Assembly (NCBI GenBank): GCA_964496695.1
Contig: CAZCBE010000013.1
Span: 12,401 to 76,400 of the forward strand
From: an uncultured Klebsiella sp.
GTDB taxonomy: Bacteria > Verrucomicrobiota > Verrucomicrobiia > Limisphaerales > SXTU01
Direction: 5' to 3'
DNA length: 64,000 nucleotides
The notes beneath the pieces were generated by a model that was not told where the DNA came from, did no database searches, and was given only the letters and a program-made list of their open reading frames with translations. Positions within the stretch are counted from its first letter, which is position 1; each line of letters starts with the position of its first letter. Position numbers and translations under genes: made by a program. This document shows, one piece after another, positions 5,596 through 33,242 of this stretch.

Positions 5596-7038
5596 ATGAA
5601 GCGAAGCATCCTGATCTATCTGGCCATTCTCGCGTTCTTTGGGGCGGGCATCTATCTGGTGATCAAGGCGGGCCAGCAATTGCCGCCCCCGACCGGCGAA
5701 AGCGCGCGGGCAGCGGTCGGCATCACTGCGCCGGGGGCCGCGAGCAGCCCGGCTTCGGCCTGGTCGGCCATGAGCGAGAACATGAAGGACCCGCTCAGCC
5801 GGCTGCTGCTGCAGGTCATCGTCATCGTGCTCGCCACCCGGGCGGTCGGCACGATTTTCGTCCGCTGCGGGCAGCCGGCGGTCGTGGGTGAGGTGCTCGC
5901 GGGGATTCTGCTGGGGCCCTCGTTGCTGGGCTGGGTCTGGCCGGAAGCGGCGGGTTTCCTCTTTCCGAAGGAGTCGCTGGGCGTCCTGAAGCTCTTGAGC
6001 CAGATCGGCGTGTGCCTGTTCATGTTTGTCGTCGGGCTGGAGCTGGAGGTAAGCCACCTGCGGCAGAAGGCGCGGACCGCCGTGATGGTGAGCCACGTGA
6101 GCATCATGTTCCCCTACTTCCTCGGCGTGCTGGCGGCACTGTTCCTTTACCCGAACTACTCGGCTTCCGGCACCTCGTTCCCGGCGTTCGCCTTGTTCAT
6201 GGGCATCGCCCTGAGCATCACCGCGTTCCCGGTGCTGGCGCGCATTCTGGCGGAGCGCGGCATCGCCAAAACCTTTCTGGGCAGCACGGCCATCACCTGC
6301 GCCGCCGTGGACGACGCCACGGCCTGGGCCATCCTCGCCTTCGTCGTCGCCATTGCCCGAGCGACCAGTCTGGTGTCCACGGCCTTTTGCCTGGGGTTGG
6401 TGATCGTGTTTGTGGTGCTGATGCTCTGGGGCGTGCGCCCGCGCCTGCCGCGCTGGCTGGGCGTGGACCGGATGGAAGGCGGCGCGCCGAGCCGGGCCGT
6501 GCTGGGCACCGTGCTCATCCTGCTGCTGAGTTCCGCACTGGCGACTGAACTGATCGGCATTCACGCGCTGTTCGGCGCGTTCGTCGCCGGCGTGGTGATG
6601 CCGGACAAAAAGGAATTCCGCGACTACCTCGTCGTGCGGCTGGAGAGTTTTAGTTCGCTGTTTCTGCTGCCGCTGTTCTTCGCCTTCAGCGGACTGCGCA
6701 CGCAGGTGGGCCTGCTGGACGACGCAACCAGTTGGCTGGTCTGCCTGGGCATCATCAGCATCGCCACCCTCGGCAAACTGGGCGGCACCATGGTCACCGC
6801 GCGATTGACCGGCATGAACTGGAACGACTCCTTCGCACTCGGCGCGCTGATGAACACCCGCGGCCTCGTGGAACTCGTCGCGCTGAACATCGGCTACGAC
6901 CTGGGCATCCTGCCCCCGCGCATCTTCGCCATGATGGTCCTCATGGCGCTGGTCACAACCTTCATGACCGGCCCGCTGCTGAATCTGGCCGAGTGGGCCA
7001 AGCGCCGCGTCGTGCCCGTGGAGCACCCGGCCATCTGA
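5596..7038 (+). CDS. Cation:proton antiporter (CPA2 / Kef-type Na+/K+:H+ exchanger family)
   Basis: 480 aa polytopic membrane protein. Family-like segments: GQPAVVGEVLAGILLGPSLLG, FMFVVGLELE, NTRGLVELVALNIGY. Confidence 0.8.
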   Translation: MKRSILIYLAILAFFGAGIYLVIKAGQQLPPPTGESARAAVGITAPGAASSPASAWSAMSENMKDPLSRLLLQVIVIVLATRAVGTIFVRCGQPAVVGEVLAGILLGPSLLGWVWPEAAGFLFPKESLGVLKLLSQIGVCLFMFVVGLELEVSHLRQKARTAVMVSHVSIMFPYFLGVLAALFLYPNYSASGTSFPAFALFMGIALSITAFPVLARILAERGIAKTFLGSTAITCAAVDDATAWAILAFVVAIARATSLVSTAFCLGLVIVFVVLMLWGVRPRLPRWLGVDRMEGGAPSRAVLGTVLILLLSSALATELIGIHALFGAFVAGVVMPDKKEFRDYLVVRLESFSSLFLLPLFFAFSGLRTQVGLLDDATSWLVCLGIISIATLGKLGGTMVTARLTGMNWNDSFALGALMNTRGLVELVALNIGYDLGILPPRIFAMMVLMALVTTFMTGPLLNLAEWAKRRVVPVEHPAI

Positions 7039-7120
7039 ACTGCGACTGCGCGTCGGTCGCGCCAGCCCGCAGGCAATAGACAGAATCCCATCGGAATTCG
7101 GCATTGGTGCTTCGGGTTTC

Positions 7121-7150
7121 TTGACATGCAACCATTTGGTTGCATATTCT
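7121..7150 (+). promoter_or_regulatory. Candidate sigma70-type promoter with an embedded ArsR-type palindromic operator
   Basis: TTGACA (7121-7126), 18-nt spacer, TATTCT (7145-7150). The spacer itself is the palindrome tgcaacca-tt-tggttgca (7127-7144). Confidence 0.45.
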
Positions 7151-7158
7151 CACCCCAG

Positions 7159-7482
7159 ATGGATGCAGTGTTCAAAGCGCTCGCGGACGAAAGCCGTCGC
7201 CAACTGCTCGACCAGTTGCACCGGCACAACGGGCAGACGCTCGGTGAGCTGTGCGAAGACCTCGACATGACCCGGCAGGCGGTGACCAAACATCTCCGGT
7301 TGCTGGAGGAGGCACGGCTCGTCGCCATCGTCTGGCGCGGGCGCGAGAAGCTGCATTATCTCAATCCAGTGCCGATTCACGAGATCTCCGAGCGCTGGAT
7401 TGCCAAATACGAACGCCACCGCCTGCAAGCGTTGAGCGATCTGAAACGAGGCCTCGAAGCAAACCAAGACCAGCCGGAGTGA
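7159..7482 (+). CDS. ArsR/SmtB-family winged-helix transcriptional regulator
   Basis: MDAVFKALADESRRQLLDQLHRHNGQTLGELCEDLDMTRQAVTKHLRLLEEARLV is a typical ArsR HTH. The ORF also opens at ATG 7126, but that codon lies inside the putative promoter. Confidence 0.8.
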   Translation: MDAVFKALADESRRQLLDQLHRHNGQTLGELCEDLDMTRQAVTKHLRLLEEARLVAIVWRGREKLHYLNPVPIHEISERWIAKYERHRLQALSDLKRGLEANQDQPE

Positions 7483-7486
7483 CGTT

Positions 7487-7930
7487 ATGCAAAAGCCAAA
7501 GCTAGTTTACACCACCTACATCCGCTCGACCCCGAAAGACGTGTGGGCGGCCATCACCAAGCCTGAATTCACCCGGCAATACTGGGGCGGACTCGCCAAC
7601 ATCTCCGACTGGAAGAAAGGCTCCACCTGGCAGCACATGACTGCTGGCGAGCAGCCGGAAGCCTGGGTCACTGGCAAAGTATTGGAGAGCACTCCCCCCA
7701 AACGCCTCGTGCTGTCCTGGGCCGACCCCGACAATCTTGCCGACAGATCGCGCGTCACCTTCGAGATCGAAATCATCAAGGACTCGGTGTGCCTCACGGT
7801 GACACACGACCAGTTCAAGGCGCGTTCGCCAATGGTCGCAAAGGTGAACGGGGGCTGGCCGCGCGTGCTCTCCAGCATGAAATCCTTTCTGGAAACCGGT
7901 AAAGGCCTCGCCGCTGCGGGTTGCAAATGA
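7487..7930 (+). CDS. SRPBCC / AHSA1-domain protein
   Basis: KLVYTTYIRSTPKDVWAAITKPEFTRQYWGG... is typical of the Aha1/START-like family. The ArsR + AHSA1 pairing is a commonly seen two-gene arrangement. Confidence 0.7.
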   Translation: MQKPKLVYTTYIRSTPKDVWAAITKPEFTRQYWGGLANISDWKKGSTWQHMTAGEQPEAWVTGKVLESTPPKRLVLSWADPDNLADRSRVTFEIEIIKDSVCLTVTHDQFKARSPMVAKVNGGWPRVLSSMKSFLETGKGLAAAGCK

Positions 7931-8042
7931 CCCAAGGCCGGCTCCAGGCCGGCTCACCCGTGCTCAGCAGAGATGCCGGGGCTGACCACGGGTGCGCTCC
8001 GGCCAGGGAACTACGGTTTCGCTGGCTGCACCAGCCGCTGCC

Positions 8043-8792
8043 TCAGCGTGGCAGCCGAACCCCGCGGTAAACCGTCACGGATGAGCCCTCCGCCAAAAAG
8101 GCGGATGATGGCCGGCGACTCAAGGCGGCGCTGAAGCACTCGCCATACAGGCCGGAAACATCGCAGTCCAGGATCGCCTCCGCCACGTCATACACCCGCC
8201 AGCGCGGATGTTCGACCCGGTATTCCAGAGTGGAGCCGTCCGGTTGAGCGTTGTAGCCCCAATAGTGTTCGGTGATGAACTCCGCCTCCGAGCCGGGCGG
8301 CAAAAGCTGCGCCTCACCGCGCAGCATCAGCTTCAAACGGTTCTCCCGGCCGCTGAAGCGCCACGAGTATTCCGCGGACCTCAACCTGCCGGACTCCGTT
8401 TCAATCCGGTGCGCCATCGGCAACGCGATGTAAGGTTCGTAGTAGAGCTTCCGTGCGGTGAGCGCGATGGCTGCGCGCGGAACGATCTCCTTGATGAACA
8501 CCACCCCGCGTCGCCAGCCCTCTTCCGCTTTGCGCCGCACATAGAACCGCAGGTTCACTTCTTCGAAATTGCGATGGAAGGGAATCGGAATGCCAACAAT
8601 GCGGGTGCTCAGGAACTGGAAACCGACAACCGAGACCAAAACCTTTCCCTGCCACAAATCCAGTTCGGTCCCGGCCGGGACGAACGGGGCGAGGACGGAC
8701 GGCTCCACCTCATAGTTCAGCATCGCCAGGTGTTTCCACTCGGCGGTGAGAAATGGCTTGGGGCCGTCAGCGCTCACCTGGCCTGGATGCAC
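8043..8792 (-). CDS. DUF2071 (YqjF-like) family protein
   Basis: PFLTAEWKHLAMLNYEVEPSVLAPFVPAGTELDLWQGKVLVSVVGFQF...FEEVNLRFYV resembles DUF2071. The ORF opens at 8951, but family-like sequence starts near GTG codons at 8792 or 8777, so the start is uncertain. Confidence 0.55.
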   Translation of the reverse strand: MHPGQVSADGPKPFLTAEWKHLAMLNYEVEPSVLAPFVPAGTELDLWQGKVLVSVVGFQFLSTRIVGIPIPFHRNFEEVNLRFYVRRKAEEGWRRGVVFIKEIVPRAAIALTARKLYYEPYIALPMAHRIETESGRLRSAEYSWRFSGRENRLKLMLRGEAQLLPPGSEAEFITEHYWGYNAQPDGSTLEYRVEHPRWRVYDVAEAILDCDVSGLYGECFSAALSRRPSSAFLAEGSSVTVYRGVRLPR

Positions 8793-9083
8793 CCTTACGC
8801 GCGGGACAGGGCATTCTCGCTGACGAAGAGGTTGCGGGACCGGAAGGCGGGCGGGCTCTCCAGCAGCAAGACAGCACGCACGGCGGTCAGCGGCGTGGCG
8901 AACCAGCCGGTCGCAGGATTCGTAGTTTGAGGTTCGTTGTTCACGAACCACAGATTACCAACCATGAAACGCGGACGCCATTATCTTGTCGCCTTGCGCG
9001 GCGGCCAACCGCGTTGCGGTTATACTTGGTGCCGCGAGTGGCGATGCAGAGAATTTTTGCTACCGTTTGGACCAGAACTTTTT

Positions 9084-9569
9084 ATGAGCGACACGAAAGC
9101 AAAAAACACCATCTGCGTTTGGTTCAACAAGGATGCGCAGGATGCGGCGCGCTTTTACGCGGCCACTTTCCCCAACAGTGAAGTCACCGCGATTCTCAAA
9201 GCCCCGGGTGACTATCCAGATGGCAAGGAGGGCGAAATCCTCACGGTGGAGTTCACCGTCTGCGGCATTCCGTGCATCGGTCTCAACGGCGGGCCGCAGT
9301 TCAAGCACTCCGAGGCCTTCTCCTTCCAGATCGCGACGGACACCCAGGAGGAAACGGACCGCTACTGGAACGCGATTGTCCGCAACGGCGGCCAGGAGAG
9401 CGCGTGCGGCTGGTGCAAAGACCGCTGGGGAATCTCCTGGCAAATCACGCCACGCGCGTTGATCAATGCGTTGACGGCCGGCGGCGCTGAAGCCAAGCGC
9501 GCCTTCGAAGCGATGATGGAAATGGGCAAGATCGACATCGCCAAAATCGAGGCCGCCCGCCGCGGCTGA
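9084..9569 (+). CDS. VOC-fold protein (PhnB / 3-demethylubiquinone-9 3-methyltransferase-domain family)
   Basis: MSDTKAKNTICVWFNKDAQDAARFYAATFPNS...LTVEFTVCGIPCIGLNGGPQFKHSEAFSFQI...CGWCKDRWGISWQITP matches this family. The ORF opens at 8937, but family-like sequence starts at ATG 9084. Confidence 0.75.
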   Translation: MSDTKAKNTICVWFNKDAQDAARFYAATFPNSEVTAILKAPGDYPDGKEGEILTVEFTVCGIPCIGLNGGPQFKHSEAFSFQIATDTQEETDRYWNAIVRNGGQESACGWCKDRWGISWQITPRALINALTAGGAEAKRAFEAMMEMGKIDIAKIEAARRG

Positions 9570-9650
9570 TGGGGACGAAGGGGGTTGCCGTCGGCAGACC
9601 AACATTGCGGCAACGTCCTTATGTTGGGTTACGAATCAAACCTGACCGAA

Positions 9651-9748
9651 CAATCCCAACGGGATTGTGTCCTCCAGCCCAAGGTTGCCGAGCTTGCGAG
9701 GTTACCTTGGGTCGCAATTCGGAAATCGATTCAACCGCAACGCGGTTG
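9651..9748. repeat. REP unit (left of RayT)
   Basis: Three consecutive hairpins: caatcccaacgggattg, cccaaggt...accttggg, caaccgcaacgcggttg. Confidence 0.8.
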
Positions 9749-9772
9749 TGGCATTTTCCGCAAGGCGACGAT

Positions 9773-10228
9773 TCAATCCCAAACGTATTTCTCATCCCAC
9801 TCGATCTCGTGCTTGCGCAACAACGCGTGCAACTCGTCCTGAAATCCAATCTTACGGTGATGCTCCTCTTGTCCGGCGATGTATTCCTTGACCTCCGGCA
9901 GCTTCGACTGGCTCACGGAGAAATCCGCATAGCCGCCTTGCCATTCGAAGTCGGCGTAATCGCGACCGCGCTCCTTCAGCCAGAGGTTCGAGACGCGTTT
10001 CAATTCCTTTACCCATTCCGCCTGCGTGATGGTGCGCCCGAAGCGCGCGAGCAGATGCACATGGTCCTCCACGCCGCCGACGAGGAGGGGCGGGCAATCG
10101 AGTTGCTTGGAGACACCGCCGAGATACGCATGGAGCGCGTCGCGCGTGGGTTTGTCGCGCAGGAACGGCCGGCGGTCTTTGGTGGAGAAGACGAGATGAA
10201 TGTAAACGGCGGAAAGGGATTGTGGCAT
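9773..10228 (-). CDS. REP-associated tyrosine transposase (RayT; IS200/IS605-like Y1 HUH transposase)
   Basis: MPQSLSAVYIHLVFSTKDRRPFL...GGVEDHVHLLARF (HUH = HVH)...VKEYIAGQEEHH (catalytic Tyr region). ATG at 10228. Confidence 0.85.
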   Translation of the reverse strand: MPQSLSAVYIHLVFSTKDRRPFLRDKPTRDALHAYLGGVSKQLDCPPLLVGGVEDHVHLLARFGRTITQAEWVKELKRVSNLWLKERGRDYADFEWQGGYADFSVSQSKLPEVKEYIAGQEEHHRKIGFQDELHALLRKHEIEWDEKYVWD

Positions 10229-10298
10229 GTGGGAAGGATGCCAAATCGCGTCGGCGTGTTCCAATCCCAAAGGCGACGTGTCGTCGCGAACCATCGTT

Positions 10299-10526
10299 CA
10301 ATCCCAAAGGGATTGCGTCCACCAGCCCTGGGTTGCGAGGAACGAGCTACCCTGGGAAGTCGGAGGCGGAATTTCACAACCCCAACGGGGTTGCGGCGAA
10401 TTCGCGAGCGATGACGGAAACGGACTGGCCACAACCCCGTTGGGGTTGATGATGATTGGCGGACGGTGCTCCAGGGTAGCTCGCGCCTCGCAACCCTGGG
10501 CTTTGGGACGGAATCCCGTTGGGATT
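10299..10526. repeat. BIME-like inverted pair of REP units (right of RayT)
   Basis: The forward unit 10299-10395 and the inverted unit about 10430-10526 mirror each other (caaccccaacggggttg / caaccccgttggggttg; aatcccaaagggatt / aatcccgttgggatt). Confidence 0.8.
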
Positions 10527-10697
10527 CTTGAGCCGGAGCAGCGCAACTGGCGAGCATGGTGCGTTCAAGCGAACGGAGAGGATGGCAACTATTCCAAGAC
10601 ACTGAATTTCCGAATCGGTGATTCGGAGATCTCCGCGAAGACGGACACTGGCGATTTCCGAGACACTGTCTCGGAAATTCAATGACGCGCCCGCGAA

Positions 10698-10745
10698 CAA
10701 TCCCAACGGGATTGCGCCCTCCAGCCCAAGGTTGGTGCGCCAGCG
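10698..10745. repeat. Truncated REP unit abutting the VOC pseudogene
   Basis: caatcccaacgggattgcgccctccagcccaaggttgg is near-identical to the unit at 9651. Confidence 0.75.
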
Positions 10746-10749
10746 CCTA

Positions 10750-11097
10750 CCGTGCGACTTTCCTCGTGGCAAGGAGGGCGAAATACTCACGGTGGAGTTC
10801 GCCGTCTTCGCCCTTCCGTGCCTGGGTCTCAACGGCGGTCCTGAATTTCCGAAAACCCAAGCCTTCTCCTTCCAAATCGCGACGGACATCCTACTGGAAT
10901 GCGATCGTCAGCAACGGCGGACAGGAAAGCGCGTGCGGCTGGTGCAAAGACCGCTGGGGTATTTCCTGGCAAATCACGCCGCGCGTGTTGATGGACGCGC
11001 TGGCGGCCGGCGGCGCTGAAGCCAAGCGCACCTTCGAAGCGATGATGGAAATGGGCAAGATCACATCGCCAAAATCGAAGCCGCCAGCCACGGCTGA
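10750..11097 (+). pseudogene. Decayed, 5-prime-truncated paralogue of the VOC gene at 9084-9569
   Basis: Nucleotide homology to 9223-9569 starts at ggcaaggagggcgaaat. There is a 17-nt deletion relative to the intact copy at about 10889 (ATDTQEETDRYWNAIV region) and a 1-nt deletion near 11063 (atcgacatc to atcacatc). The reading frame is split across two ORF-track frames (10618.. and 10682..). Confidence 0.85.
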
Positions 11098-11131
11098 AGG
11101 AAACGACGGCGTTGGCTGGACTAACAGCGAA

Positions 11132-13048
11132 TCAAGGTTTCCAATCAGACATAATCTGCTCGAACGCGGCCCAACTTCCAAACAAAGTCGCGTAAATGGG
11201 GCTGTTCACTCGGTAGTTCCTGTCGATTTCAATCTTGGTTGGTTTGCGGCCAAGCCTTCTGGCGAGGCGTTCATATTGGTAGAGCAAGATTCTCCTGATG
11301 TTGTGGCGCGTCGCGTAGGCCGGATCGAGCGTCTGACTAGCGAATACTTCGATAACCCGGTCGTCGAAGGTGACCTCGCATCCTAGCGGCAGATTCAGAA
11401 TCTCTTTTCTGGTTCTCGTGCCACTAGGACCTGCCTGTTCATCCTCTTCAAAGGGAAGAAGTCCCTGATAGTCGAGAATCCTGTGCGCGTTTTTGAAGTT
11501 GCCGATGAAGTCGATGACGGTGCAGTGCGACTTCCCGACATATTTACGCAGTCCACGCCCAAGTTGCTGATAAAAGATTCGCTTCGATTCCGTCGGTCTC
11601 AAAAACAGCAAGCATTCGATGAACGGCAAATCTGCTCCCTCATTCAACACGTCCACAACGCAAAGAATGGGAACAGTCCCATTTTTGAAACTAACCAGCA
11701 TTTGTTGGCGGCTCTGTCTGTCCGTTTCAGACGTGTAAACTGCCGCAGCGATACCTTCCGAATTGAGGCTAGCAGCAACGCGCTCTGCGTGCTTGATGGA
11801 ACAGCAAAAGGCAACCGTCGGCTTTCCTTCGGCTTTCTCACGCCACTTCCGAATTATTCCGCTGTCTCGCTGCGGAACTATGAGCGCCCTTTCGAGATCG
11901 CGAATACTGTAAGCCAGCCCGTTGTGTTTGATTTGGGTGTAATCGATGTCATCAAAACAACCGTAATAGTGGTAAGGGCAGAGAACTCCGGTCTCGATTC
12001 CAAAGCGAAGCTCGTAGCTGACGATGACGTTGTCATTGCACAGCTGAAGAATATCCTGGCGGTCACCCCGAAACGGAGTCGCGGTAAGTCCCAAAAGAAA
12101 ACCCGGTTGAATGCACTCGATGAGTTTCCGATAGGATTTCGCAGCAGCATGATGGAACTCGTCGATTACAACGTAATCAAATTGACCGGCTGACAGTTTC
12201 GCCAAGTTTTCCGCGAGCAGTTTGATAGTCGCGATGTTGATACGATTCAATTGTCGGAATGAAGCCCCTCGCTCCAAGCGCACGACATTATCCGCACCAA
12301 ACTTGGCTTCAAATTCGGACTGAGCCACGTCCAAGATTTCGTGCGTGTGCGCAACGTAAAGAACTCGGGCCGGGTTTAGTGCCTTGGCGTCCTCGGCTGA
12401 GATTCGCGTTTTGCCGCTACCTGGTGGTAATACCACCAACCCAGTCTTTTGTTTCAATGCGTGGGCTGTTGCTAAACCCTCTAACGCTTCCTTCTGTAGC
12501 AAATTCAAAATCCGCTTTGGCGGCGAGTATCCGCATTTGCATCGTCCGGCAGAAACTCGACTCGCGTCGCGCGGGCACAGGAATCCGTGGGCGACGAAGA
12601 GCCGCGCCAAATCCACCACGTCAAAAATCGAATAGCGGCAGCCAATCTCTTCGCAGGTTGTGCAAAACTGCTCTTTCGCCGGGTCGAGGATAGTTCCCGG
12701 TGCGGCGAAGACTGCGAACTTCAAGCCATCGATTTTCTTGAGCCGGTAAATCTGATGTGAAACGTCGGATTGTCGAACAGTTGAGAATGATTTCCCTTTC
12801 AGAATAAAAGCCGCCAAGCCGTGCTGGCCTTTAACCGTGACCCTGTGTGTGAAGATGTCCGCTATTTCCATTGGCCCATGCGGTGTCTCGCCGAAGTCGG
12901 CGAGAATTGAACGAAGGAAAGGCTCTAACTCCTCCCGCTCATCGAGCTTCTTTACCACACGAATGAGTTCAGGCGTGACATCAGAGGCGGAGAAATCCTT
13001 TGCCTCTTTGAAGTTGTCGAATGCTTCAATTGGAATCAGTAAGCTCAT
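11132..13048 (-). CDS. Mrr-like (PD-(D/E)xK) nuclease domain fused to SF2 DExH helicase with C-terminal HEARO-like repeat
   Basis: Helicase motifs: PPGSGKT (I), VIDEFHH (II), GLTATP (III), VDVLNEGADLP (V), QQLGRGLR (VI). The first 170 aa follow a restriction-endonuclease layout (..EIADIF..AAFILKGKS..FAVFAAPG..IFDVVDLARLF). The C-terminus ...YATLFGSWAAFEQ resembles the homing-endonuclease-associated repeat. GC content is visibly lower than in the flanks. Confidence 0.75.
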   Translation of the reverse strand: MSLLIPIEAFDNFKEAKDFSASDVTPELIRVVKKLDEREELEPFLRSILADFGETPHGPMEIADIFTHRVTVKGQHGLAAFILKGKSFSTVRQSDVSHQIYRLKKIDGLKFAVFAAPGTILDPAKEQFCTTCEEIGCRYSIFDVVDLARLFVAHGFLCPRDASRVSAGRCKCGYSPPKRILNLLQKEALEGLATAHALKQKTGLVVLPPGSGKTRISAEDAKALNPARVLYVAHTHEILDVAQSEFEAKFGADNVVRLERGASFRQLNRINIATIKLLAENLAKLSAGQFDYVVIDEFHHAAAKSYRKLIECIQPGFLLGLTATPFRGDRQDILQLCNDNVIVSYELRFGIETGVLCPYHYYGCFDDIDYTQIKHNGLAYSIRDLERALIVPQRDSGIIRKWREKAEGKPTVAFCCSIKHAERVAASLNSEGIAAAVYTSETDRQSRQQMLVSFKNGTVPILCVVDVLNEGADLPFIECLLFLRPTESKRIFYQQLGRGLRKYVGKSHCTVIDFIGNFKNAHRILDYQGLLPFEEDEQAGPSGTRTRKEILNLPLGCEVTFDDRVIEVFASQTLDPAYATRHNIRRILLYQYERLARRLGRKPTKIEIDRNYRVNSPIYATLFGSWAAFEQIMSDWKP

Positions 13049-13090
13049 TCTATTTTTTCGCTTTTAATCTGAGCCTTCTCATGTCGGCTG

Positions 13091-31762: not shown

Positions 31763-32212
31763 TCAAAGTTGGCTCAAATCGGCGAGATCCTTCGGACGGG
31801 CGCTGGCCTGCTTGTTCAGCTTCAAATCAACCAGGCTGAGCATGTGGACCGGCACGCCATCGTAGTCAGTCTCAATGCGCCGCCCCCAAGCCAAGACGAA
31901 GTCACCGCCGGAAATTCGGTTCAACACTTCGATCAGGTGCGGACGCGCGCCAAAGTGGGTGACGACTTCAGGATCGAGCAGTTGAGCCGTGGTCAAACCG
32001 GCCATCTCATCGCTGAAAAACTTGCGGATGGCGGCCACCGCCCGATCCGCGTTTTCGGGCGTCCGGTTGATCCAGACATCCATGTCCGAGGTGACACGGG
32101 GGTAGCCGTGAAAGGAGACCGCGTGACCGCCGATGAGCAGATACTCAACCCCAGCGGCGTTGAGACACGCGAGGAACTCGCGGAAGTCGGGCGGCAGATG
32201 CCTCGGGTCCAT
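31763..32212 (-). CDS. Minimal nucleotidyltransferase-fold protein
   Basis: VEYLLIGGHAVSFHGYPRVTSDMDVWI fits the GG-x(n)-D-x-D NTase signature. 149 aa. Confidence 0.6.
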   Translation of the reverse strand: MDPRHLPPDFREFLACLNAAGVEYLLIGGHAVSFHGYPRVTSDMDVWINRTPENADRAVAAIRKFFSDEMAGLTTAQLLDPEVVTHFGARPHLIEVLNRISGGDFVLAWGRRIETDYDGVPVHMLSLVDLKLNKQASARPKDLADLSQL

Positions 32213-32351
32213 AGTTCAGTTCGCGCAGGTATTCGAGATGCCAGAGGCGTTCCTGAGGCGTGCGGGAATGCCAGAACTCGCGCTCCTTCGCGTCGGCCTC
32301 CGCGAAGCCTCGTGAGAAGGAAACCATGGGTTTGATACGGCGTTCAGCCAT
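32145..32351 (-). CDS. Small partner protein overlapping the NTase gene by 68 nt (or the N-terminal part of a frameshifted fusion)
   Basis: 68 aa: FAEADAKEREFWHSRTPQERLWHLEYLRELNYG. Its 3-prime end overlaps the 31763-32212 ORF in another frame. Confidence 0.4.
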   Translation of the reverse strand: MAERRIKPMVSFSRGFAEADAKEREFWHSRTPQERLWHLEYLRELNYGPEASAARLPRVPRVSQRRWG

Positions 32352-32404
32352 GCAGGAAATGTGGCCACAAATGGGAAAGAATTCAATCCGTAAACTTGCC
32401 CAAC

Positions 32405-32479
32405 TGCCTCTCCGATGGTGTCGAGGGCCGACTGGTGGCGGAGAGTGGCGTTCGCCTGAGTGATTTGGTCGGGGGTCAT
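32405..32479 (-). pseudogene. Duplicated remnant of the cysH 5-prime end
   Basis: atgacccccgaccaaatcac (minus strand) is identical to the true cysH start. MTPDQITQANATLRHQSALD compares with MTPDQITQANAELRNKSALD, and similarity is lost after about 23 codons. Confidence 0.75.
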
Positions 32480-32498
32480 TTAGCGAAACTCGGTAAAA

Positions 32499-33242
32499 TC
32501 AATTCCAACTGCCTTCCGCAAAGGCGTCTTTTGCACCATTGAAGGTATGCCGAAGAAATGGGTGCTCCTCCAATTCGCTGTCGGCGATTACTAACTGCCC
32601 ACTTCGCTGGAGGATGAGACGGCTCGTGGAGTCCGGCAAAGGGTGACTGCTTACGAAGTAGAAGAAAATGAATCCCGAAAACACGAAACGGATGCATCTG
32701 TGGCCACTGACTCGTGAAGGCGTAGGCTCAACAAAAAAATCGCGGAATACATCACCGTCGAATTTGAGGGAGCAAACGAAACACGCATACTCATCAGGGG
32801 AGCCTGGCGTGTCCGACATCAACAGCAGCCTAATCTTCTCCTCGTGCGGCCCCAAGTCTACGTGCCGAAAGAATCCGTGAGTTGCAGCGGCGGCTCTCCA
32901 GAGAACCGATAGTAAGAAGAGCTTCATGCGAGCGTAGTCAAGGCCAGTAATTACAATCGCATTCGCGCGCCCCTGAGACTGAGGGGTTGGGAGAGGTCTG
33001 CCAAAAAAATCGTTGCTCGCATAGTGCTCAAGTTTGGAGAACTTTAATTCGCAGTTCGCACACATCAGTGGCTCACGGAATCCCTTTTGCTCCCATTCCC
33101 AAGCGCGCTCCGTAATTTGTGCGCTCCGAAAGCGGTGCTTTGCGTCGTAAAGGGGCCTGTAGATGAATTCTGGAATTATGTGAGAATTCATCAACTTGGC
33201 TGGTGTCTGGCAAAGCCGACAATATGTCTGTGGCGCACTCAC
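32499..33242 (-). CDS. Orphan low-GC protein with N-terminal CxxC-x(6)-SHIIPEF motif
   Basis: MSAPQTYCRLCQTPAKLMNSHIIPEFIY...CANCELKF; 247 aa. It is clearly more AT-rich than the flanking cysI and cysH. I recognise no family with confidence. Confidence 0.55.
   Translation of the reverse strand: MSAPQTYCRLCQTPAKLMNSHIIPEFIYRPLYDAKHRFRSAQITERAWEWEQKGFREPLMCANCELKFSKLEHYASNDFFGRPLPTPQSQGRANAIVITGLDYARMKLFLLSVLWRAAAATHGFFRHVDLGPHEEKIRLLLMSDTPGSPDEYACFVCSLKFDGDVFRDFFVEPTPSRVSGHRCIRFVFSGFIFFYFVSSHPLPDSTSRLILQRSGQLVIADSELEEHPFLRHTFNGAKDAFAEGSWN

Follow-up and report, generated by a model that had tools for sequence, protein, structure and literature searches.

What kind of protein is encoded by a single gene that stands alone in an AT-rich islet, and how might it act? 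The question is raised by a stretch of 64,000 nt (here called the window) from contig CAZCBE010000013.1 of assembly GCA_964496695.1 (positions 12,401 to 76,400), deposited as an uncultured Klebsiella sp. and placed by GTDB in the Verrucomicrobiota, in which a sequence-only reading had pointed to a nuclease-helicase gene without partners in a low-GC islet of about 2 kb. The claimed open reading frame (ORF) of 638 amino acids (aa) is present, with all the peptides quoted from it, and we consider it somewhat probable that its product is a translocating nuclease of the restriction or defence type, powered by ATP and encoded by a stand-alone gene of horizontal origin.

Based on sequence comparison, the motor (aa 180-520) and the tail (aa 584-638) of this protein are homologous to the corresponding parts of the Type IV restriction enzyme SauUSI, with the ATPase motifs intact. 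Pfam placed ResIII at aa 182-327 (1.2e-28) and Helicase_C at aa 404-501 (2.7e-12). The top PADLOC model was the SauUSI-type mREase_IV (2.3e-57), with aa 180-615 aligned to profile positions 222-650 of 953, and the best solved structure in a phmmer search of the Protein Data Bank (PDB) was SauUSI itself (7clg_A, 4.2e-58; query 180-627 against chain residues 222-662). The Walker A motif, DEFH, TATP and QQLGRGLR were invariant in 24 family members, and the motor should for this reason be an active ATPase. The complete superfamily 2 (SF2) DExH helicase that had been described, resembling the core of DUF3427-type proteins, was thus recovered with all its motifs, and SauUSI/DUF3427-type enzymes were its closest relatives. 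The relatives in annotated plasmid records were DUF3427 proteins, 37-39% identical over an alignment that starts near aa 184 of the query and extends to its final residues, and one of these proteins has the full 913-aa SauUSI layout. The best 25 PADLOC families comprised restriction-type motors together with DpdF, PsyrT, MkoA, type IV DinG, BrxH and GajB. The family belongs to none of the named systems of PADLOC v2, in agreement with the earlier statement that this domain combination was not recognised as a named system.

SauUSI is composed of a phospholipase D-like (PLD) nuclease (residues 1-191), a linker (192-220), an ATPase (221-617), a coupler (618-805) and an SRA-type target-recognition domain (TRD; 806-953), the coupler being divided into a first subdomain (618-669) built from four short helices, and a second one (673-805) (PMC7913695). 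In the full-length AlphaFold2 (AF2) model of the window protein, four short helices are predicted at aa 584-635 as the counterpart of the first coupler subdomain only, and the protein stops before the second. As aligned, the protein corresponds to the SauUSI ATPase and first coupler subdomain and then ends; the second coupler subdomain and the DUF3427/SRA TRD are absent, and the PLD nuclease has been replaced by an unrelated restriction endonuclease (REase)-like N-terminal domain (N-domain) followed by a Cys knuckle. No PLD nuclease was matched by Pfam, and the alignment to SauUSI begins only at chain residue 222. A Foldseek search with the full model ranked SauUSI first, RadD and XPB next, and then LlaBIII (735 columns) and HsdR (more than 800 columns), and the last two alignments take in the N-terminal nuclease. 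Since the confidence of this model is moderate (predicted local distance difference test, pLDDT, 71), no inter-domain geometry was drawn from it. The tail had previously been called HEARO-like. It does resemble a homing-endonuclease-associated repeat, as aa 589-629 reached 25.6 bits with Pfam HNH_repeat (PF18780; cut-off 26, E 1.6e-5), a precomputed PF18780 match is present in many close homologues, and the region aligns with the SauUSI coupler; the name itself is wrong, HEARO being the name of an RNA motif.

No sequence profile of Pfam, NCBIfam, PADLOC, PHROGs or PDB matched the first 178 residues. With phmmer, 1.8 billion cluster representatives were searched exhaustively for the N-domain and yielded 204 matches (about 200 clusters at 50% identity); 50 diverse copies, 26-66% identical, were aligned (alignment A1). 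F13, E37, H57, E61, D64 and K84 are invariant in A1, and E42, T55, G85 and D122 nearly so. The AF2 model made with A1 reached a pLDDT of 95.7 and consists of three helices, a beta-hairpin (65-72/75-83), a helix (93-103), a strand (109-115), a helix (122-134), a strand (138-142) and a last helix (144-153). D64 stands directly before the first hairpin strand and K84 directly after the second, and these are the spots occupied by the D and K of PD-(D/E)xK in the REase fold. Weak but consistent Foldseek matches in the PDB were the MspJI catalytic domain (8e-4), EcoT38I, the Avs4 nuclease, ERCC1/XPF/MUS81/FANCM and RPB5. In BFVD they were phage proteins named 'Restriction endonuclease' and Mrr-domain proteins (1e-4, template-modelling (TM) score 0.50, root-mean-square deviation 3.9 A, 131 columns), and RPB5 was matched again. 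The predicted structure supports a restriction-endonuclease-like fold for the N-domain.

The Cys knuckle behind the N-domain reads CxxC...CxxC in more distant relatives, and weak zinc-ribbon Pfam matches were obtained for several members; it is probably a degenerate zinc ribbon. The segment AFILKGKS (window 12788-12811, aa 80-87) also fits the Walker A pattern [AG]x4GK[ST], and a motif scan flags a pattern of this type in several relatives too. We rejected a P-loop at this place as a chance fit, because the invariant Lys is K84 and not K86, the segment lies at the end of a hairpin strand, and a helix starts only from residue 93.

The N-domain is also carried by other proteins. Proteins combining a STAND NTPase with TPRs (1252 and 1549 aa) have it at the N-terminus, the usual effector position, and a KaiC-like ATPase has it at the C-terminus; in protein P0138 it follows an LmuA/Avs2-like nuclease domain. 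An abundant family of about 450 aa (451-aa family) joins it to a helical, coiled-coil-like C-terminal half. Most of the fusion partners have no Pfam match, and the public names of the N-domain proteins are all 'hypothetical protein'. Carriers of the N-domain that we noted are P0129, P0204, P0172, P0138 and P0131, together with loci L080-L159. Neighbour clustering over 54 of 80 metagenome loci showed no conserved partner of the 451-aa family, which is therefore also stand-alone. Short proteins with the N-domain only were considered as two-gene, Hachiman-like versions and rejected, as they are fragments of disrupted genes. The sole N-domain match in annotated plasmid records was a 445-aa 'hypothetical protein' (WP_110042820.1) on the Paenibacillus cellulosilyticus megaplasmid NZ_CP054609.1 (236732-238069; locus L163), flanked by an IS110 transposase, a LA2681-family HEPN protein, a GTP pyrophosphokinase-family (RelA/SpoT-like) protein and an M48 protease. 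Through this gene the N-domain family can be approached in a cultured organism. Among NTP-dependent conflict systems, Kaur et al. (PMC7159879) describe DUF3427-helicases as well as effectors with the REase fold, one clade of which was unreported; the present architecture is not described there.

The composition of the gene sets it apart from the window. Its GC content is 51.3%, compared to 64.6% in the remaining window, which gives a z of -5.9 against all other 1917-nt windows (mean 0.647, standard deviation 0.023, minimum 0.573). The GC content of third codon positions is 58%, and 84% in the adjacent UbiD gene, and the tetranucleotide distance of the gene from the window background has a z of +8.5. 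The AT-rich islet of about 2 kb was thereby established by measurement, and in a fine-scale GC profile the low-GC stretch is essentially the ORF alone.

The family shows accessory and mobile behaviour in the genomes that carry it. Metagenomes contain many full-length homologues, with identities of 60-96%. When 185,579 species, each represented by a single genome, were scanned by a pattern-based search, at least 56 family loci came out (a lower bound), all of them in metagenome-assembled genomes (MAGs) and covering no fewer than 12 phyla as well as one archaeon (Verrucomicrobiota, Planctomycetota, Acidobacteriota, Gemmatimonadota, Alphaproteobacteria, Chlorobiota, Chloroflexota, Actinomycetota, Bacteroidota, Desulfobacterota, Nitrospirota, Bacillota and an Aenigmatarchaeote). 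The window itself belongs, by a 97% match, to an uncultured lineage of the Verrucomicrobiae. Identity is flat at 52-64% regardless of taxonomic distance, and the GC content of the gene lies below that of its flanks, by 3 to 13 points, in seven of eight loci. Among the 56 genome copies, at least nine are disrupted: they carry insertions of 1-1.5 kb, large internal deletions or frameshifts, or are only remnants, and some of the frameshifts in long-read MAGs may be sequencing errors. Disrupted copies were recorded at L042, L050, L052, L057, L058, L060, L062, L063, L065, L160 and L161, with the 1-1.5 kb insertions in L042 and L052, internal deletions of 370-445 codons in L058 and L063, remnants in L065 and L160, and three ORFs beside a DDE transposase in L161. 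IMG/VR viral contigs contained only helicase-only matches at 22-28% identity and no full-length member, phage records no N-domain match, and plasmid records no full-length family member. The closest relative (L001, 96% protein identity) has the gene at the same site between UbiD and the PhnB-like gene, with a DNA identity of 91% in the gene and 86-87% in the flanks, which indicates vertical inheritance in that lineage since the acquisition. L001 also has an insert of about 500 bp, absent from the window, just upstream of its helicase gene; two copies of the UbiD 3' end (7035-7254 and 7750-7970) enclose it, and what was called a '71-aa ORF' at this place is the copied UbiD tail.

The absence of partner genes, claimed from the window, extends to the homologues, because in the clustering of neighbours no family was found in more than 4 of 60 helicase-family loci. 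The 147 nearest neighbours match 158 Pfam families, none of which recurs more than twice. A survey of these loci for defence islands gave a divided answer: the neighbours are mostly housekeeping genes, with a minority related to defence or toxin-antitoxin functions (Type I S subunit, AriA, PtuA, mad3, mad5, SoFic, PIN_8, AAA_21), and the contexts are variable without a conserved repair operon. The enrichment of defence islands around the family is for this reason weak. Individual loci lie beside HigB/HTH pairs (L002), beside DUF433/DUF5615 pairs and an integrase fragment (L006), or beside AAA with S8 peptidase, SMEK_N and RES (L009), and others sit among plainly housekeeping genes. At L008 the family member (9258-11171) lies about 180 bp downstream of a 1111-aa protein with N6_Mtase and Type_ISP_C (5742-9077), in which the motor and the nuclease of a Type ISP enzyme are both missing. 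As a pair, the genes would amount to a split Type ISP-like enzyme, an arrangement that is unique among the loci seen.

We propose that the motor would load on double-stranded DNA and translocate with ATP like the motors of SauUSI, Type I HsdR and Type ISP enzymes, and that it would carry with it an N-terminal nuclease able to cut DNA. The candidate active site is E61/D64/K84, with E37, E42, H57 and D122 nearby. In favour of this, the N-domain occupies the position that the nuclease has in HsdR, Type ISP enzymes and SauUSI. Since a REase-fold domain provides one active site in each monomer, breaking both strands would take two molecules, in a dimer or by collision as in the Type ISP and Type I enzymes; the obligate PLD dimer of SauUSI would not be needed. 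Without a TRD, the discrimination between self and non-self cannot work as in SauUSI. It would have to rely on the N-domain, the Zn knuckle, the tail, or the state of the DNA (ends, nicks, replication intermediates) as in Hachiman, and this is the least certain step of the mechanism. The role of such an enzyme would presumably be in defence. A more far-reaching proposal, which we make tentatively and regard as possible but doubtful, is that the N-terminal module represents an uncurated, promiscuous family of Mrr-like REase and Zn-knuckle effectors (with SF2, STAND-TPR, KaiC-like and 450-aa forms), and that its fusion to a TRD-less SauUSI motor constitutes a new single-gene anti-phage or anti-plasmid system, triggered by one of these DNA states or by a cue that the N-domain reads, and not by base modification.

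Several results weigh against a translocating nuclease. The Mrr_cat-like character claimed for the N-domain is borne out by the predicted fold and by the invariant Asp and Lys at the hairpin, and fails at the level of sequence and profile: Pfam Mrr_cat was matched by one of the 50 N-domain members, with an E of 0.034 only, and hhalign of the N-domain profile to E. coli Mrr and to the Mrr family profile gave probabilities of at most 0.24. By eye the order of motifs is collinear with E. coli Mrr, which we take as a lead only. The residue two positions before the Lys (K-2) is Ile82, so that the canonical (D/E)xK is incomplete and E61, E37 or E42 would be needed to provide the second carboxylate. 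The Foldseek scores of the N-domain are modest (TM 0.4-0.5), and the inactive REase-fold domains RPB5 and ERCC1 are among the matches. P0138 already has another nuclease-like domain, and the N-domain could accordingly be a sensor. No target-recognition module was identified; DUF3427/SRA gave no match, and aa 638 is the last of the ORF. The 42-bp spacer upstream of the gene showed no sigma-70-like promoter, which makes co-transcription with UbiD possible, and housekeeping genes make up most neighbours of the homologues.

Some of these points are shared by a different explanation, in which the N-domain is a catalytically dead REase-fold module for sensing, DNA binding or oligomerisation, and the protein a non-cutting translocase or remodeller that might act by displacing invader proteins, by signalling to effectors whose genes lie elsewhere, or by stalling replication. 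The lack of an acidic or Gln residue at K-2, the inactive folds among the structural matches, the separate LmuA/Avs2-like nuclease in P0138 and the common 451-aa family, in which only a helical, coiled-coil-like region is added, all fit it. We consider it unlikely, however, because E37, H57, E61, D64 and K84, with the nearly invariant E42 and D122, are kept across all architectures, which is more than a binding module usually needs, because D64 and K84 hold the canonical positions flanking the hairpin, and because the domain takes the place of the nuclease in a SauUSI-type scaffold. It is also quite unlikely that a DNA repair or recombination helicase-nuclease like RadD, Hef or XPB-Bax1 was acquired horizontally by chance. 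The protein does match NCBIfam RadD (3.3e-36), RadD and XPB structures rank just behind SauUSI, the nuclease folds of XPF/MUS81/FANCM are among the N-domain matches, many homologues have housekeeping neighbours, and the window gene follows UbiD after 42 bp with no promoter of its own detected. Against it, the RadD score is 124.7 bits where the equivalog cut-off is 720, the closest relatives of the motor are restriction motors, and the family, with at least 56 loci in about 185,000 species genomes, is patchy across phyla, lacks a conserved operon, is frequently disrupted and has a GC content below that of the host.

That the gene is selfish and homing-like, favouring its own insertion or retention in the manner of a free-standing homing endonuclease gene, appears improbable. 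The islet is a tight single ORF in intergenic space, the family has spread horizontally very widely and is highly conserved, the tail is similar to a homing-endonuclease-associated repeat and decayed copies exist; on the other hand, insertion sites and flanks differ between lineages with no conserved target, neither flanking repeats nor an intron or intein context were found, Pfam showed no HNH, LAGLIDADG or GIY-YIG domain, the gene is absent from the phage and viral collections searched, and the two closest genomes share it at one site by vertical inheritance. We likewise give little chance to the gene being half of a split restriction system in which the specificity or modification partner, a separate TRD or MTase (methyltransferase)-TRD protein, has its gene at another place or changes from genome to genome. 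Lutz et al. (PMC6765204) report SauUSI-like enzymes whose TRD is a neighbouring protein of its own, and L008, with its MTase-TRD protein about 180 bp upstream that has no motor or nuclease of its own, as well as the Type I S subunit beside another homologue, agree with such a division. Against it, no neighbour family is shared by more than 4 of the 60 loci, the annotated neighbours in the window include no TRD or MTase, and L008 stands alone. The translocating nuclease of restriction or defence type is the explanation that we prefer. As for the sequence-only reading, we encountered neither an N-terminal domain devoid of the fold or its candidate catalytic residues, nor a conserved housekeeping context such as a repair operon, nor an ordinary composition, and its interpretation is supported.

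Table 1. Position of the nuclease-helicase gene, its domains and motifs, and the adjoining elements in the window.
Feature	Coordinates	Strand	Remarks
Whole ORF, 638 aa and TGA stop	11132..13048	minus	ATG start; coincides with the low-GC islet
N-terminal domain core, aa 1-155	12584..13048	minus	Three helices, then predicted restriction-endonuclease-like alpha/beta core
Candidate active-site segment, aa 55-87, TPHGPMEIADIF...AAFILKGKS	12788..12886	minus	H57, E61, D64 and K84 invariant
Cys knuckle, aa 156-178 (FLCPRD...GRCKCGYSPP)	12515..12583	minus	C158, C170 and C172 invariant in the family
SF2 DExH motor, aa 180-520	11489..12511	minus	Pfam, SauUSI 7clg, PADLOC mREase_IV
Walker A PPGSGKT	12407-12427	minus	Inside the motor
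Motif II DEFH	12152-12163	minus	Inside the motor
Motif III TATP	12074-12085	minus	Inside the motor
Motif VI QQLGRGLR	11546-11569	minus	Inside the motor
Linker region, aa 521-583	11300..11488	minus	Low AF2 confidence; conserved in the family; still aligns to SauUSI
C-terminal four-helix tail, aa 584-638, ending in FGSWAAFEQ	11135..11299	minus	HNH_repeat-like; SauUSI coupler subdomain 1
42-bp spacer, UbiD stop codon to ATG	13049..13090	minus	
Terminator-like hairpin, then T-rich tail	11079..11095	minus	About 40 nt downstream of the stop; consensus match only

The ORF lies between the stop codon of UbiD (13091), 42 bp away, and the 3' end of a convergent PhnB-like remnant, about 30 bp away. The neighbours in the window are ordinary (UbiD, phosphoribosyltransferase, gluconolactonase-like protein, exosortase, DUF2071 and PhnB-like protein, together with a RAYT transposase), and no partner gene was found among them. 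A repeat search around the gene showed no direct or inverted repeats bracketing the ORF and no transposon or insertion signatures; the repeats nearby all belong to the REP/RAYT block or to a PhnB-like duplication. This block (window 9589-10749) contains a RAYT ORF (9773..10294, minus strand) for a Y1 (IS200-like) transposase, a 52-nt REP-like element in three or more copies, and several inverted pairs. On both sides it is enclosed by copies of the 3' part of the PhnB-like gene (9204-9588 and 10750-11116, 81-91% identical), the second of them with a frameshift. The block resembles an insertion that duplicated about 380 bp of its target; it adjoins the helicase islet and is not part of it. A second, milder GC dip (0.53-0.57) was seen at window 31763..33242 on the minus strand, by eye between a CysH-like gene and a sulfite-reductase-like gene. 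It holds a 149-aa protein with a weak DUF6036/AbiEii-like nucleotidyltransferase match (31763..32212) and a 247-aa protein with an N-terminal CxxC and no Pfam or PADLOC match (32499..33242), and may be another small acquired cassette.

If the protein is active, the SauUSI-type restriction motor would be a portable chassis on which the nuclease can be exchanged, a REase fold for a PLD, and the modification-reading domain is dispensable. This raises the question of how a translocating nuclease without a TRD tells foreign DNA from self. An uncatalogued nuclease-like domain moreover recurs at the effector position of several NTPase-based conflict proteins, and as this domain is invisible to Pfam, NCBIfam, PADLOC and PHROGs, such genes are missed by current defence-finding pipelines. 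The family comes almost entirely from uncultured soil and sediment lineages (Verrucomicrobiota, Acidobacteriota, Planctomycetota), whose defence repertoires are poorly charted.

Compared with known systems, the protein is closest to SauUSI of Staphylococcus aureus (7clg) and DUF3427-helicases such as ScoA3I, with which it shares a homologous SF2 DExH ATPase and the first four-helix coupler subdomain, as well as the organisation as a single polypeptide from a stand-alone gene with the nuclease N-terminal to the motor. It differs in its REase-like N-domain where SauUSI has a PLD (HxK), in its length (638 aa, compared to 953 in SauUSI), and in having neither the second coupler subdomain nor a DUF3427/SRA TRD, and no TRD was a conserved neighbour in the 60 loci. 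To the SauUSI type also belongs the ATP-dependent cleavage of DNA with 5mC or 5hmC. Since the PLD and TRD are missing, the reading of 5-methylcytosine and the obligate PLD dimer of SauUSI cannot be assumed, and the protein is not a member of the SauUSI family as defined.

The Type ISP enzymes (LlaGI, LlaBIII) and Type I HsdR subunits (EcoR124I, EcoKI) also combine an N-terminal REase-fold nuclease with an SF2 translocase of double-stranded DNA and a helical coupler, and cleavage by the collision or cooperation of two motors is the likely analogue. Their motors are only distantly related in sequence to that of the window protein (E of about 1e-3 for LlaGI and LlaBIII by phmmer against PDB). As it has no MTase, no TRD and no conserved HsdM/HsdS partner, with a single locus (L008) adjoining an MTase-TRD protein, it does not belong to the Type ISP or Type I families. 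With the Mrr-type PD-(D/E)xK nucleases (Mrr_cat), the MspJI catalytic domain and the N-terminal nucleases of Avs proteins, the N-domain shares the predicted fold, the Asp before the beta-hairpin and the Lys at its end; it differs in giving no sequence or profile match, in having Ile rather than E, D or Q at K-2, and in the extra invariant H57 and E61 and the appended Cys knuckle.

Hachiman, with its HamA nuclease and HamB SF2 helicase, is outlined in the cited account as sensing the state of DNA, and offers one model for triggering without a TRD (PMC12278908). Hachiman and the single-gene nuclease-helicase defences Nhi and Hna share with the present proposal the coupling of a REase-type nuclease to a DNA-surveying helicase, for which no modification-reading domain is needed. 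Hachiman differs in having two genes and a helicase of another clade than the window motor, Nhi in its SF1 helicase and Hna in a reversed order of domains. Models of these three systems were not among the best 25 PADLOC matches, none of which covers the N-domain, and DUF1837 (HamA) was not among the families listed for the 50 N-domain copies. From RadD the protein is separated by a score far below the NCBIfam equivalog level. Noteworthy are the swap of a domain, the absence of a TRD and an N-domain that is uncatalogued and promiscuous, yet many such candidate single-gene systems exist, and what we describe is an unnamed family on a known theme, a nuclease riding on an SF2 translocase.

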